Part shown: positions 5,387 through 58,022 of the stretch, one piece after another
Numbering within the stretch: the first letter of the stretch is position 1
Layout: every line of letters starts with the position of its first letter
NCBI RefSeq assembly: GCF_053078305.1
Contig: NZ_CP166879.1
DNA length: 64,000 bases
Reading direction: 5' to 3' (one strand)
Made by a program: the position numbers and the translations under genes
Notes under the pieces: generated by a model
What the model saw: the letters and a program-made list of their open reading frames with translations, nothing else
Databases searched by the model: none
What the model was told of the DNA's origin: nothing

Positions 5387-6631
5387 ATGGCAACACTAAC
5401 CACCACCCAAACGTCACCGTCGCTGCTTGGCGGCGTGGTGATTATCGGCGGCACCATTATTGGCGCAGGGATGTTTTCTCTGCCAGTGGTCATGTCCGGG
5501 GCGTGGTTCTTCTGGTCAATGGCGGCGCTGATCTTCACCTGGTTCTGTATGCTGCATTCCGGCTTGATGATTCTGGAAGCTAACCTGAATTACAGAATCG
5601 GTTCGAGTTTTGACACCATCACCAAAGATTTGCTGGGCAAAGGCTGGAACGTGGTCAACGGCATTTCCATTGCATTTGTGCTCTATATCCTGACCTATGC
5701 CTATATTTCTGCCAGTGGTTCGATTCTGCATCACACCTTCGCAGAGATGTCACTAAACGTCCCGGCACGGGCGGCGGGTTTTGGTTTTGCATTGCTGGTA
5801 GCGTTTGTGGTGTGGTTGAGCACTAAAGCCGTCAGTCGCATGACAGCGATTGTGCTGGGGGCGAAAGTCATTACCTTCTTCCTCACCTTTGGTAGCCTGC
5901 TGGGGCATGTGCAGCCTGCGACATTGTTCAACGTCGCCGAAAGCAATGCGTCTTATGCACCGTATCTGTTGATGACCCTGCCGTTCTGTCTGGCATCGTT
6001 TGGTTATCACGGTAACGTGCCAAGCCTGATGAAGTATTACGGCAAAGATCCGAAAACCATCGTGAAATGCCTGGTGTACGGTACGCTGATGGCGCTGGCG
6101 CTGTATACCATCTGGTTGCTGGCGACGATGGGTAACATCCCGCGTCCGGAGTTTATCGGTATTGCAGAGAAGGGCGGTAATATTGATGTGCTGGTACAGG
6201 CGTTAAGCGGCGTACTGAACAGCCGTAGTCTGGATCTGCTGCTGGTCGTGTTCTCAAACTTTGCGGTAGCGAGTTCGTTCCTTGGCGTAACGCTGGGTTT
6301 GTTTGACTATCTGGCAGATCTGTTTGGTTTCGATGACTCAGCTGTGGGCCGCTTGAAAACAGCATTGCTGACCTTTGCCCCGCCTGTCGTGGGGGGCCTG
6401 CTGTTCCCGAACGGATTCCTGTACGCCATTGGTTATGCTGGTTTAGCGGCTACCATCTGGGCGGCAATTGTTCCGGCACTGCTGGCCCGCGCATCGCGTA
6501 AACGCTTTGGCAGCCCGAAATTCCGCGTCTGGGGTGGCAAGCCGATGATTGCGCTGATTCTGGTGTTTGGCGTCGGCAACGCACTGGTGCATATTTTATC
6601 GAGCTTTAATTTACTGCCGGTGTATCAGTAA
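5387..6631 (+). CDS. mtr: tryptophan-specific permease Mtr, 414 aa
   Basis: Polytopic membrane protein of the aromatic amino acid permease family; paralogous to tdcC/cyuP-type transporters in this window. Confidence 0.93.
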
Positions 6632-6636
6632 TCAGC

Positions 6637-6731
6637 GGTGCCTTATCCGACATTTCTGCTGCCTACACAATGCCTGATGCGCTTCGCTTATCAGGTCTAT
6701 GTAGGACAGCGTTGCCAGCTCGGATAAGGCT
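6637..6731. repeat. REP/BIME palindromic element cluster
   Basis: gccttatccgac / gcctgatgcgcttcgcttatcaggtctatgtagg / cggataaggc motifs typical of E. coli REP. Confidence 0.75.
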
Positions 6732-6748
6732 TCCCGCGTTAAGACACA

Positions 6749-7756
6749 CTATCCCAACAACTCTTCCTTAACATCCATCGCCAGCTCAAACGAATGCAGC
6801 CGCGCCTGGTGGTCGAAAATCTGCCCGTTGACCATAATCTCATCGGCGTCGGTTTCGCGCAGGATCGACTGCAAGCCATGACGCACTTTCGCTTTATCAC
6901 CTACCAACGACATACTCAGCGCCTGCTGCACGCCATACTGCTCAGACGGTGACCAGAACTGATCCATATTTTGAATCGGCGGCGGCAGTTGCCCGGTTTC
7001 GCCACGGCGCAGCTTCACAAAGGCTTGCTGCATTGAGGTAAACAGAAATTCAGCGTCGCGGTTGCTGTCGGCGGCGATAATATTGATGCACACCATCGCG
7101 TATGGTTTTTCCAGCCGTGCTGACGGTTTGAAGTTGCTGCGATAAAGATGCAGCGCCTGGAACAGCATATCCGGCGCGAAGTGTGAGGCAAACGCAAACG
7201 GCAGACCAAGCTGCGCCGCCAGTTGCGCGCTGTAAAGGCTGGAGCCTAACAACCACACGGGGATTTTCTCGCCATAGCCTGGTACCGGGCGCACATGCGG
7301 ATTGGGATCGCGGGCGTCAAACCAGTCCACCAGCTCCGCCACATCGCGGGGGAAATTATCAATATCGCCGCTCATATGACGACGTAGCGCCATCATTGTC
7401 CGTTGGTCACTACCCGGAGCACGACCCAGCCCCAAATCGATTCGCCCCGGATAGAGTGTATTGAGCGTGCCGAACTGTTCTGCAATGACCAACGGTGAGT
7501 GGTTAGGCAACATCACGCCGCCAGACCCCAGATGCAGCGTGGTGGTATTCGCCGCCAGATAGCCAATCAATACCGACGTGGCAGCACTGGCAATGCCAGT
7601 CATATTGTGGTGTTCTGCCAGCCAGTAGCGATGATAGCCGCGCTTTTCAGCCAGACGGGCGAGATCGAGAGAGTGGGAGAATGCTTCTCGCGCTGAAGAA
7701 CCTTCGGGAATGGGGGCCAGATCGAGTAGCGAAAACGCAATGGTTTTATCAGTCAT
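6749..7756 (-). CDS. yhbW: luciferase-like (LLM class) flavin-dependent monooxygenase, 335 aa
   Basis: Full-length ORF, recognised sequence and synteny. Confidence 0.88.
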
Positions 7757-7759
7757 AAC

Positions 7760-7830
7760 AGCTCACTTTGTTACCGATTAATCTTTAATACTGCATTAAA
7801 GAGTAGTTAAAGTTGTTAACAAAGTGAGCT
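7760..7830. promoter_or_regulatory. 14-bp perfect inverted repeat (agctcactttgtta ... taacaaagtgagct) with 43-bp AT-rich spacer
   Basis: Read directly from sequence between the yhbW start and the ubiV stop. Confidence 0.5.
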
Positions 7831-7836
7831 ATTTAC

Positions 7837-8715
7837 TTAGGCTTGCAGCTCCAGTCCTGCCAGCCGCCGCCAGTAGCCGTTACAGTCGCTGTTCGCCGTC
7901 AACGGCAGTGGTGCAGCGCCATTTTCATTAGCGCGGAAGGCGTCGAGCATCGCGAAAGTGTCAGTACCCTGCGGTGACAGGCGGACCACATCAACCAGGC
8001 CCTGCATGGATGCCAGCTCGTTACCGAGGTTGTAAACGTAGCCGCTCATGGTCTGAATGCCATTGAGTACAAACACTTGTTGGTTTTCCTGCGACAGCAC
8101 GTTGCGCCCGTTCGGATACTTAATGCAGCAGGTTTCACACTCATCTTTCGGGCGGTCTTCCGAACGCGCGGTAAAGCAGCGAGCGGAGTAGGCCAGCGGT
8201 AGATGACCGTAGCTCAGGACTTCCACTTCAAACTGGTTGCGAATGCCCAGCTCATCGCACTGATTAAGCAGATTCACCAGCCAGTCGCGGGAAAGCTCCA
8301 CCGGCATACACCAGCGCATCATGCCCTGTTTGAGCAATATTTTCAGCGTCACCGCGTTATAGCAGTTCAGCGCGTGTCCGGCGACGAACGGCAGTTTGCG
8401 TTCAGCGCACATATTCACCACGCCGAGATCGCTGGCTTCAATCAGAAACTCACCGTTCTCAACATAGCGTTTCAGTTCGCCCAGTTCAGATGATGCCTGC
8501 ACCAGCGCCAGCGTGGAGAGCACTATCTGCTTACCACTTCCGGCGAGCGATTTTGCCATCTCCAGCCAGTCGCCAACTTTGGTTGCCCGGCGCTTGCTGC
8601 ATACCGCTTCGCCAAGATAAATCACGTCGGCGCTGCTGGTGGCGGCCTGCTGATAAAAATCTTCCAGCGTCTCTTTTGGCCAGTACCACAGCACTGGCCC
8701 TAAGGAATATTTCAT
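7837..8715 (-). CDS. ubiV: U32-family protein UbiV (YhbV), O2-independent ubiquinone biosynthesis, 292 aa
   Basis: ORF recognised; start set at MKYSLGPVLWYW; overlaps ubiU stop region. Confidence 0.88.
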   Translation of the reverse strand: MKYSLGPVLWYWPKETLEDFYQQAATSSADVIYLGEAVCSKRRATKVGDWLEMAKSLAGSGKQIVLSTLALVQASSELGELKRYVENGEFLIEASDLGVVNMCAERKLPFVAGHALNCYNAVTLKILLKQGMMRWCMPVELSRDWLVNLLNQCDELGIRNQFEVEVLSYGHLPLAYSARCFTARSEDRPKDECETCCIKYPNGRNVLSQENQQVFVLNGIQTMSGYVYNLGNELASMQGLVDVVRLSPQGTDTFAMLDAFRANENGAAPLPLTANSDCNGYWRRLAGLELQA

Positions 8716-8723
8716 TGCTCTTC

Positions 8724-9719
8724 TCACTGCCATTTACGGTGATACGCGCCAAGGGTGGTTTGCGTGCCTTCGGACATCGACCCGAGCGTCTCCATCCACG
8801 CGCTTTGCGGTACGAAGTTTTGCGGATCGGCCTTACAACGGTCGATAGCCTGACGCCAGACTTTCGCCACCTGGCTGACATACGCCGGGCTACGCTGGCG
8901 GCCTTCAATTTTCACCGAAGCGATATTCGACGCCATTAACTCCGGTAGCAGTTCCAGGGTATTGAGACTGGTTGGTTCTTCCAGCGCGTGATAGCGCTCG
9001 CCGTCCACCAGATAACGCCCTTTACACAACGTCGGATAACCTGCGTTTTCGCCGTCCTGATAACGATCGATCAGCACTTCGTTCAGGCGGGATTCCAGCC
9101 CCTGCGGCGTTTGTTGCCAGCGCACGAAACGGGCCGGAGAACACGCGCCCACGGTGTTGGGCGACTCACCCGTCAGATACGACGACAGATAGCAACGACC
9201 TTCCGACATAATGCACAGGCTGCCGAAAGCAAACACTTCCAGCGGGACAGGTGTGACCCGTGCCAGCTGTTTCACCTGATGAATCGACAACACGCGCGGC
9301 AGCACCACGCGGGCAACGTCAAAATGGCGATGATAAAAGTTAATCGCCTCTTCATTGGTCGCCGAAGCCTGCACTGACACATGACGCTCAATATGCGGGT
9401 AACGCTCGGCGGCGTACTCCAGCATGGCGAGGTCGGCGAGGATCAGCGCGTCGGCACCCAGCTGCGCCGCCATATCCACGGCACGCTGCCAACGGGCGTA
9501 ACCGTCCGGATGCGCAAAAGTGTTAATCGCGATGTGAAGTTTGCGGCGATGTTGATGGACAAAACTCACCGCTTCCTGCAATTTTTTCTCGGTAAAGTTA
9601 AGGCCGGCGAAGTGACGGGCATTGGTATCATCTTTTAGCCCGATATAAACAGCATCTGCGCCGTTTTCGATGGCCGCCTTAAGCGCCGGGAGATTTCCGG
9701 CAGGGCAGAGCAGCTCCAT
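8724..9719 (-). CDS. ubiU: U32-family protein UbiU (YhbU), 331 aa
   Basis: ORF recognised; start set at MELLCPAGNL (ATG 9719). Confidence 0.88.
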   Translation of the reverse strand: MELLCPAGNLPALKAAIENGADAVYIGLKDDTNARHFAGLNFTEKKLQEAVSFVHQHRRKLHIAINTFAHPDGYARWQRAVDMAAQLGADALILADLAMLEYAAERYPHIERHVSVQASATNEEAINFYHRHFDVARVVLPRVLSIHQVKQLARVTPVPLEVFAFGSLCIMSEGRCYLSSYLTGESPNTVGACSPARFVRWQQTPQGLESRLNEVLIDRYQDGENAGYPTLCKGRYLVDGERYHALEEPTSLNTLELLPELMASNIASVKIEGRQRSPAYVSQVAKVWRQAIDRCKADPQNFVPQSAWMETLGSMSEGTQTTLGAYHRKWQ

Positions 9720-9927
9720 AATTTTTCCTGAAGGTTGCGCTATCAAAACGCAAAAATGTTAACGAACTGGGATTTTAGTTAACCTTGCTGCGACAATTTT
9801 TGATTTAAGGCAGTTAAAGTTGTATTGGTGGTAGCAGCAATTTCATATGGAATTGTTGATTTATACCGCTATGTTATTTTTCTGATATGGCAAAATAGGA
9901 TGATTGTTGAAACAGGGAGTAAAACTC

Positions 9928-10452
9928 GTGTTGGATAAACTGCGTTCCCGTATTGTGCATTTGGGGCCATCTCTGTTGAGTGTACCGGTAAAACTGACGC
10001 CATTTGCGCTAAAACGCCAGGTTCTTGAGCAGGTCTTAAGCTGGCAATTCCGTCAGGCGCTGGATGATGGCGAGCTGGAGTTTCTTGAAGGCCGCTGGTT
10101 AAGTATTCATGTGCGTGATATTGACCTGCAATGGTTTACCTCGGTGGTGAATGGCAAACTGGTGGTCAGCCAGAACGCGCAAGCTGATGTGAGTTTTAGT
10201 GCCGACGCCAGCGATCTGCTGATGATTGCGGCGCGTAAACAGGATCCGGATACGCTCTTCTTCCAGCGTCGGCTGGTGATTGAAGGCGATACGGAGCTGG
10301 GGCTGTATGTGAAAAACCTGATGGACGCCATTGAACTGGAGCAAATGCCGAAAGCCTTACGCATGATGCTGCTGCAACTGGCGGATTTTGTTGAGGCGGG
10401 AATGAAAACCGCGCCTGAAACCAAACAGACATCGGTAGGTGAACCATGCTAA
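9928..10452 (+). CDS. ubiT: SCP2-domain protein UbiT (YhbT), 174 aa, GTG start
   Basis: GTG at 9928 preceded by GGGAGT Shine-Dalgarno; divergent from ubiUV. Confidence 0.82.
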   Translation: MLDKLRSRIVHLGPSLLSVPVKLTPFALKRQVLEQVLSWQFRQALDDGELEFLEGRWLSIHVRDIDLQWFTSVVNGKLVVSQNAQADVSFSADASDLLMIAARKQDPDTLFFQRRLVIEGDTELGLYVKNLMDAIELEQMPKALRMMLLQLADFVEAGMKTAPETKQTSVGEPC

Positions 10453-57914: not shown

Positions 57915-58022
57915 GTGCCGGATGCGATGCTGGCGCATCTTATCCGGCCTACGGGTTGTTTAATTCGTTAATGTTGTTGGATTTTGTAGGCCGGATAAGG
58001 CGTTTTCGCCGCATCCGGCAAC
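57915..58022. repeat. REP/BIME element cluster
   Basis: gccggatgcgatgctggcgcatcttatccggcctac and taggccggataaggcgttttcgccgcatccggca. Confidence 0.75.

Follow-up and report, generated by a model that had tools for sequence, protein, structure and literature searches.

The 80-bp gap between ubiV and yhbW of E. coli is occupied by a long inverted repeat which, in its most likely reading, is the class II marbox promoter of yhbW together with the yhbW ribosome-binding site, arranged in such a way that RNA reading through from ubiV would be translationally silent. The repeat appears to straddle yhbW's own promoter, and its two arms would serve different primary jobs. The upstream arm would act as DNA, as a forward marbox whose distance from a weak −10 element, CAGTAT, is that of class II promoters, and the downstream arm would act as RNA, as the yhbW translation-initiation region with its Shine-Dalgarno (SD) sequence GUGAG. 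Transcription from this stress-activated promoter would start between the arms (~7783–7779), giving an RNA that lacks the upstream arm and presents an open ribosome-binding site in a leader of ~25 nt. Since no terminator follows ubiV, anaerobic read-through transcripts of ubiUV would carry both arms, which would pair into a 17–18-bp stem (~−25 kcal/mol) that hides the SD and reaches up to the AUG. RNA carrying the downstream arm alone would be translated and RNA carrying both arms would be silent; YhbW, an O2-dependent monooxygenase, would thus go untranslated from read-through RNA.

The two transcription units are under different control, with ubiUV being regulated by FNR. YhbW is a luciferase-like flavin monooxygenase that uses O2; UbiU and UbiV belong to the ubiquinone pathway that does without O2 (10.1101/587956). 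Taken as a complete mechanism, a translational gate on yhbW set by the promoter from which the transcript originates, our proposal falls just short of being probable. Its most ambitious version, in which one sequence is used twice, as DNA activator site and as RNA anti-SD, thereby gating yhbW by its transcript's promoter and keeping YhbW off the anaerobic ubiUV message, and in which this arrangement is held across Enterobacteriaceae, is possible but doubtful.

Table 1. Features of the ubiV–yhbW region, in coordinates of the window, the whole 64-kb stretch of DNA that was analysed
Feature	Position	Strand	Remarks
ubiU, ubiV, yhbW		−	E. coli window; all three genes on this strand
ubiV stop codon TAA	7837..7839	−	followed after 6 nt by the 14-nt upstream arm
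Upstream arm AGCTCACTTTGTTA	7817..7830	−	5′ arm in yhbW sense
Marbox-like 15-mer GCTCACTTTGTTAAC	7815..7829	−	forward relative to yhbW; candidate MarA/SoxS/Rob (RamA) site
Nested inner inverted repeat TCTTTAAT-gcagt-ATTAAAGA	7779..7805 (7779–7789 / 7795–7805)	−	contains the −10-like hexamer
−10-like hexamer CAGTAT (A2, T6)	7788..7793	−	21 bp downstream of the marbox-like 15-mer
Predicted yhbW transcription start zone	7779..7783 (MG1655 ~3303421–3303425)	−	from hexamer position and micF calibration; within the spacer, downstream of the upstream arm
Downstream arm TAACAAAGTGAGCT	7760..7773	−	3′ arm in yhbW sense
yhbW Shine-Dalgarno-like GUGAG	7762..7766	−	in the downstream arm, 5 nt before AUG
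yhbW start codon ATG	7754..7756	−	

The inverted repeat and its conservation

The sequence-only reading of this region had described, between ubiV and yhbW, two perfect 14-nt arms around a 43-nt A+T-rich spacer, and its coordinates, spacer and placement all hold: 7760–7773 (agctcactttgtta) and 7817–7830 (taacaaagtgagct) form an exact 14-nt inverted repeat around a spacer of 43 nt (72% A+T), in a gap with an overall A+T content of 70%. Accurate as far as it went, that description missed both an extension of the stem and the nested inner repeat. A repeat search lengthens the arms to 17 nt with 94% complementarity (7757–7773 / 7817–7833), the single mismatch being a G.U pair on minus-strand, that is yhbW-sense, RNA, where the stem has 17–18 pairs. 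The upstream arm continues to 7833 through A-U, U.G and A-U pairs, and the downstream arm continues to 7757, 1 nt short of the yhbW AUG. The nested inner stem is not kept between genera; only its (T)GCAGTAT(T)AAA is.

The 14-mer is found once in the window, at the ubiV–yhbW locus only. For first-order Markov sequence of 64 kb and spacers of 3–100 nt, 0.02 perfect 14-nt inverted repeats are expected per window, compared to two observed. The second of these, at ~57920–58020 (near 57969), is a REP (BIME-type) pair, GCCGGATGCG.../...CGCATCCGGC. Overlapping the inner end of the upstream arm, positions 7813–7822 form a perfect 10-bp palindrome, TTGTTAACAA, with an HpaI site, which is kept in Escherichia, Salmonella, Citrobacter and Franconibacter and not in every genus. 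The ubiT–ubiU divergent region (9860–9896, minus strand) gives a sub-threshold Rfam CRISPR-repeat match (21.9 bits versus a gathering threshold of 50, E = 0.32), which is probably a chance palindrome in a divergent promoter region.

The element is single-copy: it is present in 5423 of the 5426 complete E. coli genomes, at 5425 places in all and with a median of 1 place in each genome, and 4458 of these places are identical across all 80 bases. At loci around YhbW homologues both arms are found in Escherichia, Salmonella, Citrobacter, Klebsiella, Cronobacter and Franconibacter, as well as in Atlantibacter, Buttiauxella, Pluralibacter, Superficieibacter, Mangrovibacter, Entomohabitans and others. 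With both arms kept in at least 14 named genera, the conservation across Enterobacteriaceae that the sequence-only reading had proposed to check is present. The arms persist despite spacer insertions of ~85 nt and ERIC/REP insertions between ubiV and the upstream arm. In the outgroups Brenneria, Erwinia and Providencia, the upstream arm is absent and the downstream arm (AACAAAGTGAG) is kept, reading AACAA(A)GTGAG right before the ATG. Tenebrionibacter retains partial arms although ubiV is not upstream.

At the Tenebrionibacter locus (locus positions 1300–1500), yhbW lies apart from ubiV with ccdA upstream of it, the upstream arm is degenerate, and a canonical marbox, GCACAAAAAGCAAAC (13.6 bits), is located at −155. 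The Providencia yhbW (locus positions 1400–1500) is likewise apart from ubiV and has TAACAAAGTGAG before its ATG, without the upstream arm; the encoded protein is 85% identical to E. coli YhbW, and its presence away from ubiV may reflect horizontal transfer.

An ERIC/IRU element of 125 bp is inserted between 7831 and 7830, separating the ubiV stop from the upstream arm, in 1423 of the 5426 complete E. coli genomes (26%); in these genomes the repeat is intact and the stem still forms. The ERIC end converts the U.G pair of the stem to C-G, the element contains the ERIC1R primer sequence ATGTAAGCTCCTGGGGATTCAC (locus L001, 408–612), and the same insertion is seen in E. albertii together with further inserted sequence. 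In Salmonella (locus positions 1319–1425) the upstream arm is separated from the ubiV stop by a REP-like palindromic insert (…GCCTGATAAGCGTAGCGCCATCAGGC…), and the repeat downstream of this insert is intact. E. coli M19 (locus 333–1352, ~1500) carries an IS110-family transposase element inside the downstream arm, directly after TAACAAAG (window equivalent ~7766); its yhbW has lost the 5′ end and is annotated as a pseudogene fragment. In many genera an insert of ~85 nt sits between the repeat centre and the downstream arm, with both arms kept. This conserved insert in the predicted yhbW leader is found in Klebsiella, Enterobacter, Cronobacter, Franconibacter, Atlantibacter and Entomohabitans and has the form CAGCTTTCTGGC-(variable hairpin)-GCCAGGCTGGAAGAAGACCTTCAATCTGATGAC...GCTG (K. 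pneumoniae locus 1411–1485). It has no E. coli homologue and no Rfam match, and the z-score of its K. pneumoniae fold is not significant.

The statement of the sequence-only reading that the repeat is not a canonical intrinsic terminator was confirmed: a consensus scan of the minus strand calls none in 7400–8200 or 6600–10100, the loop is 43 nt long, and the tail after the stem, AUGACUGAUAAAA, has no U-tract. A mobile element (REP/BIME, ERIC/IRU or MITE) was rejected, the repeat being single-copy both in genomes and in the window. The search against Rfam 15 produced only a generic hairpin match to mir-1285 (27 bits versus a gathering threshold of 56), and the related loci had no Rfam match.

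A candidate class II marbox promoter for yhbW

The upstream arm looks like a forward marbox for monomeric MarA, SoxS or Rob, or for RamA in Klebsiella and Salmonella. We scored the 15-mer GCTCACTTTGTTAAC with a MarA position weight matrix (PWM) built from 33 MarA ChIP-seq sites (PMC5684230), which themselves range from 3.4 to 19.8 bits. At 8.3 bits it ranks 69th of 127972 window positions (top 0.05%), with 68 other positions scoring as high. In 15 of 20 species no other forward marbox in the 200 nt upstream of the yhbW start scores higher, and the 15-mer is near-invariant across genera. The match to the consensus gcannwwntgnnaaa has 3 mismatches, whereas the working marbox rule allows at most 2 (PMC12052159), and T replaces the usual A of GCA (GCTC rather than GCAC). 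A marbox register shifted by 2 (TCAC...) was rejected at −4.9 bits.

yhbW is documented as part of the MarA/SoxS/Rob/RamA regulon. RamA shifts the K. pneumoniae yhbW promoter, on a fragment whose limits are unstated, and raises its transcription in vitro 6.9-fold (PMC4310594); between ubiV and yhbW, K. pneumoniae has the same upstream arm together with CATTAT. In Salmonella, yhbW is RamA-dependent, its expression being 3-fold lower in the ramA mutant (PMC3139621), and vanillin induces YhbW more than any other protein, 77-fold (PMC6561319). The ubiV–yhbW intergenic region has no listed peak in MarA ChIP-seq of ETEC (PMC5684230), nor has it one in Salmonella MarA/SoxS/Rob/RamA ChIP-seq. An activator of this family may also bind here in E. 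coli.

The best marbox of the whole window is located inside ubiV (8520–8534, plus strand; GCACTATCTGCTTAC, 14.7 bits) and equals the MarA ChIP-seq site reported within yhbV in ETEC, the only such site near yhbW (PMC5684230). This marbox is E. coli-specific, containing an Ile codon (ATA) where Val (GTG/GTA) is found elsewhere, and scores 1.7 bits in K. pneumoniae. As a conserved activator site for yhbW, in reverse orientation and ~770 bp upstream, it was rejected on account of its absence from K. pneumoniae and Salmonella: since regulation of yhbW is also seen in these two, an E. coli-specific site is not the conserved mechanism. Oriented as it is, it could serve a minus-strand start near 8455 as a class I site.

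The spacing downstream of the 15-mer is fixed. The 21-bp gap to the hexamer (cAnTAT/AATACT) is kept in 19 of 20 loci, with intervening bases that vary. The hexamer itself occurs as CAGTAT, CACTAT, CAATAT, CATTAT and, at two loci, AATACT, with A2, T4, A5 and T6 kept and any base at position 3. Because A2 and T6 are fixed and position 3 takes all four bases, the hexamer behaves as a −10 element and not as part of an RNA helix. It shares only 3 of 6 positions with TATAAT, and a sigma-70 promoter scan calls nothing at the hexamer. Two other potential −10 elements were rejected, TATTAA (7790–7785) given that no species has T at position 6 of TATNAN, and TTTAAT (7800–7795) as poorly conserved and at the wrong distance from the marbox.

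For calibration we used micF, a proven class II promoter with its marbox centre at −41 (PMC8811837), where the same two elements are 20 bp apart; class II promoters are defined by a forward marbox that overlaps the −35 and is centred at −36 to −55 (PMC12052159), with ~18–19 bp separating the 20-mer from the −10. From the hexamer position and the micF calibration we infer that yhbW has a class II marbox promoter whose start would lie inside the spacer. No transcription start or 3′ end entry for the ubiV–yhbW region was found in the published supplementary datasets searched. The putative yhbW promoter would resemble the class II marbox promoters of micF, fumC, lpxC P2, lpxL P1 and rfaY P1 in its forward asymmetric site over the −35 region, at ~−41 and ~20 bp from the −10 element, in its weak core promoter and in driving a regulon gene. 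Unlike these, the yhbW candidate site has GCTC for GCAC, 3 consensus mismatches and no reported ChIP peak. If this assignment is right, the promoter of yhbW, which is among the most strongly induced mar/sox/rob-type genes, gains a concrete architecture.

The ribosome-binding region and read-through RNA

The downstream arm contains the elements expected of a translation-initiation region. GUGAG pairs with the anti-SD at the 16S 3′ end with −4 to −5 kcal/mol in six species, and AAGTGAG is invariant in the alignment. Minus-strand RNA from 7850 to 7740 folds at −29.4 kcal/mol (z = −4.3), and 0 of 200 shuffles are as stable. In the predicted read-through RNA the arm duplex has −24.7 kcal/mol and the probability that the SD is unpaired is 0.001 from 25 to 50 °C, a constancy that led us to reject an RNA thermometer. 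In the predicted own-promoter mRNA of E. coli, with its ~25-nt leader lacking the upstream arm, the stretch from SD to AUG is 0.63 unpaired. The outer stem is present in the minimum-energy fold of read-through RNA in 16 of 19 species, and in 18 of 19 the predicted own-promoter RNA has a more open SD-to-AUG stretch than the read-through RNA. The stem covers the SD and the start region, GUGAG lying within its 3′ arm, as is characteristic of fold-back inhibition. The long-loop RNA structure that the sequence-only reading had considered for the ubiUV 3′ end therefore survives in part: such a hairpin would form in any ubiUV read-through transcript, but its significance likely lies in the yhbW ribosome-binding site within the 3′ arm and not in the ubiUV 3′ end.

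Fold-back inhibition is said to operate in IS10 and IS50, where, in work attributed to Davis, Simons and Kleckner (1985) and to Schulz and Reznikoff (1991), transposase is reportedly not translated from RNA that enters from external promoters. By analogy, yhbW would have a segment upstream of its own start that is complementary to the ribosome-binding site, so that own-promoter RNA would be translated and read-through RNA would fold the ribosome-binding site away. Unlike a transposase gene, yhbW is a chromosomal gene for a stress-induced enzyme beside a metabolic operon, its upstream segment also appears to be an activator site, and the yhbW case is a computational one. A looser likeness is to start-site switching at pyrC and pyrD of E. 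coli and Salmonella, where the 5′ end of the mRNA decides whether an SD-sequestering hairpin forms. There too the hairpin depends on the location of the mRNA 5′ end; however, the pyrC 5′ ends are a few nucleotides apart and come from one promoter through a choice set by the NTP pool, whereas for yhbW two promoters, those of ubiU and yhbW, would be involved. Terminators and REP/ERIC stem-loops share with the repeat a stable hairpin directly after a stop codon, but the repeat lacks a U-tract, has a loop of 43 nt rich in A+T and occurs as a single copy, and the true ERIC element adjacent to it in some strains is clearly distinct.

If the gate operates as proposed, two adjacent and oppositely regulated units, an anaerobic one of FNR type and an oxidative or xenobiotic stress gene, would be insulated without a terminator, and selection for this insulation may have maintained the arrangement. 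The activator site would also be constrained by its own RNA copy, which might explain the odd GCTC of the marbox. No new class of mechanism is opened by this; it is a fairly ordinary type of gene insulation.

Alternative readings

The gate requires that the two arms be complementary for a reason. They could also be constrained independently, one as activator site and the other as ribosome-binding site, and be complementary by descent, for example from an ancestral inverted duplication of the ribosome-binding site, with the hairpin an unselected by-product; we consider this unlikely, though worth serious consideration. A covariation test of 17 pairs in 19 sequences against column shuffles bears on it directly: 85.0% of cells are paired versus 84.5% after shuffling, and both arms are conserved as sequence. 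As covariation is not above that of the shuffles, the pairing is not demonstrated to be under selection; the search for compensatory changes suggested by the sequence-only reading was thus carried through but turned out to be uninformative, both arms being sequence-conserved. Brenneria, Erwinia and Providencia, moreover, keep the downstream arm although they have no upstream arm, and the complementarity could therefore be inherited and not selected. Descent is also consistent with the different patterns of conservation, the upstream arm being conserved over the full marbox and the distal half of the downstream arm drifting in Cronobacter, Entomohabitans and Mangrovibacter.

Other features are harder to reconcile with descent alone. 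The TAACA of the downstream arm has no obvious role in ribosome binding, yet it is complementary in most genera. Where only one arm has changed, the substitutions are compatible with G.U pairing in the yhbW sense only, as in columns 11/45, with AU in 13, GU in 4, GC in 1 and no unpaired case. Among 18 distinct sequences (19 loci), 4 have A-U and 4 have G-C as the flanking pair, and by locus 5 of 5 with G upstream have C downstream. Two cases are compensatory, this A-U/G-C flank and GCTCGC/GCGAGC in Mangrovibacter; given their small number and phylogenetic linkage, they carry no weight. Whatever its origin, the stem would physically form in any RNA with both arms.

The repeat might instead be a pair of DNA operators, with the same protein on both arms repressing or bridging the yhbW core promoter, either a MarA-family protein, a further molecule of which would sit on a reverse marbox at ~+14, or another regulator. 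The arms do flank the predicted −10 element and start, and they are conserved as sequence and not by covariation. Read in reverse, however, the downstream arm scores 3.8 bits as a marbox versus 8.3 for the upstream arm; its reverse complement still reaches 3.8–5.6 bits in several species, but such a score is at the bottom of the verified range, and Cronobacter, Entomohabitans, Mangrovibacter and Pluralibacter no longer have the TG/AAA half of this arm. Neither arm is symmetric, and proteins of the MarA family bind as monomers (PMC8811837). Between the upstream arm and the ATG, and hence between the arms, the distance varies (73, 74, 97, 122, 128, 137, 138 and 145–147 nt) with no helical periodicity, and the outgroups keep one arm only. 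We regard an operator pair as improbable. The sequence-only reading had suggested a pair of half-sites for a regulator of yhbW, and as a pair of equivalent sites this fails: only the upstream arm scores as a site, the downstream arm decays distally and survives alone in outgroups, and the spacing of the arms (73–147 nt) is unphased. Its connection of the repeat to yhbW regulation is retained in the promoter and ribosome-binding reading that we favour.

A third account places the function at the 3′ end of the ubiUV mRNA, as a stem-loop that protects from 3′ exonucleases, an RNase III site that splits ubiUV from yhbW, or an end formed with help from Rho or pausing. The stem does start 3–6 nt after the ubiV stop, as a long and stable duplex of 17–18 bp, and no other terminator is present. 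Against this, the stem has no U-tract, and the 125-bp ERIC element (1423 of 5426 E. coli genomes) or the REP-like insert of Salmonella parts the stop from the stem with the repeat kept. Partial arms are kept in Tenebrionibacter without ubiV upstream, no yhbW/ubiV 3′ end is among the Term-seq supplement entries listed, and the fixed spacing to the hexamer would go unexplained, leaving a 3′-end function distinctly improbable. Translational coupling, in which a ribosome terminating at the ubiV stop would open the base of the stem and allow yhbW translation from polycistronic RNA, is hardly credible even though the stop lies 4–7 nt before GCTCAC in most genera and the stem base pairs with the SD-to-AUG spacer, for the helicase of a terminating ribosome reaches ~+11 to +15 nt from the P site and would melt no more than the lowest 2–6 pairs, with GUGA staying paired, and ERIC/REP insertions put at least 100 nt between stop and stem in many strains.

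Finally, in Brenneria and Erwinia (loci ~2850–2885), hairpins with T-rich tails that look terminator-like by eye, and that the consensus scan did not call, follow ubiV: GGGCAG...CTGCCCATTTATTTTT in Brenneria and CGCGCGCT...AGCGCGCGTTTCC in Erwinia. The contrast of these outgroup hairpins with the arrangement in Enterobacteriaceae is only suggestive.
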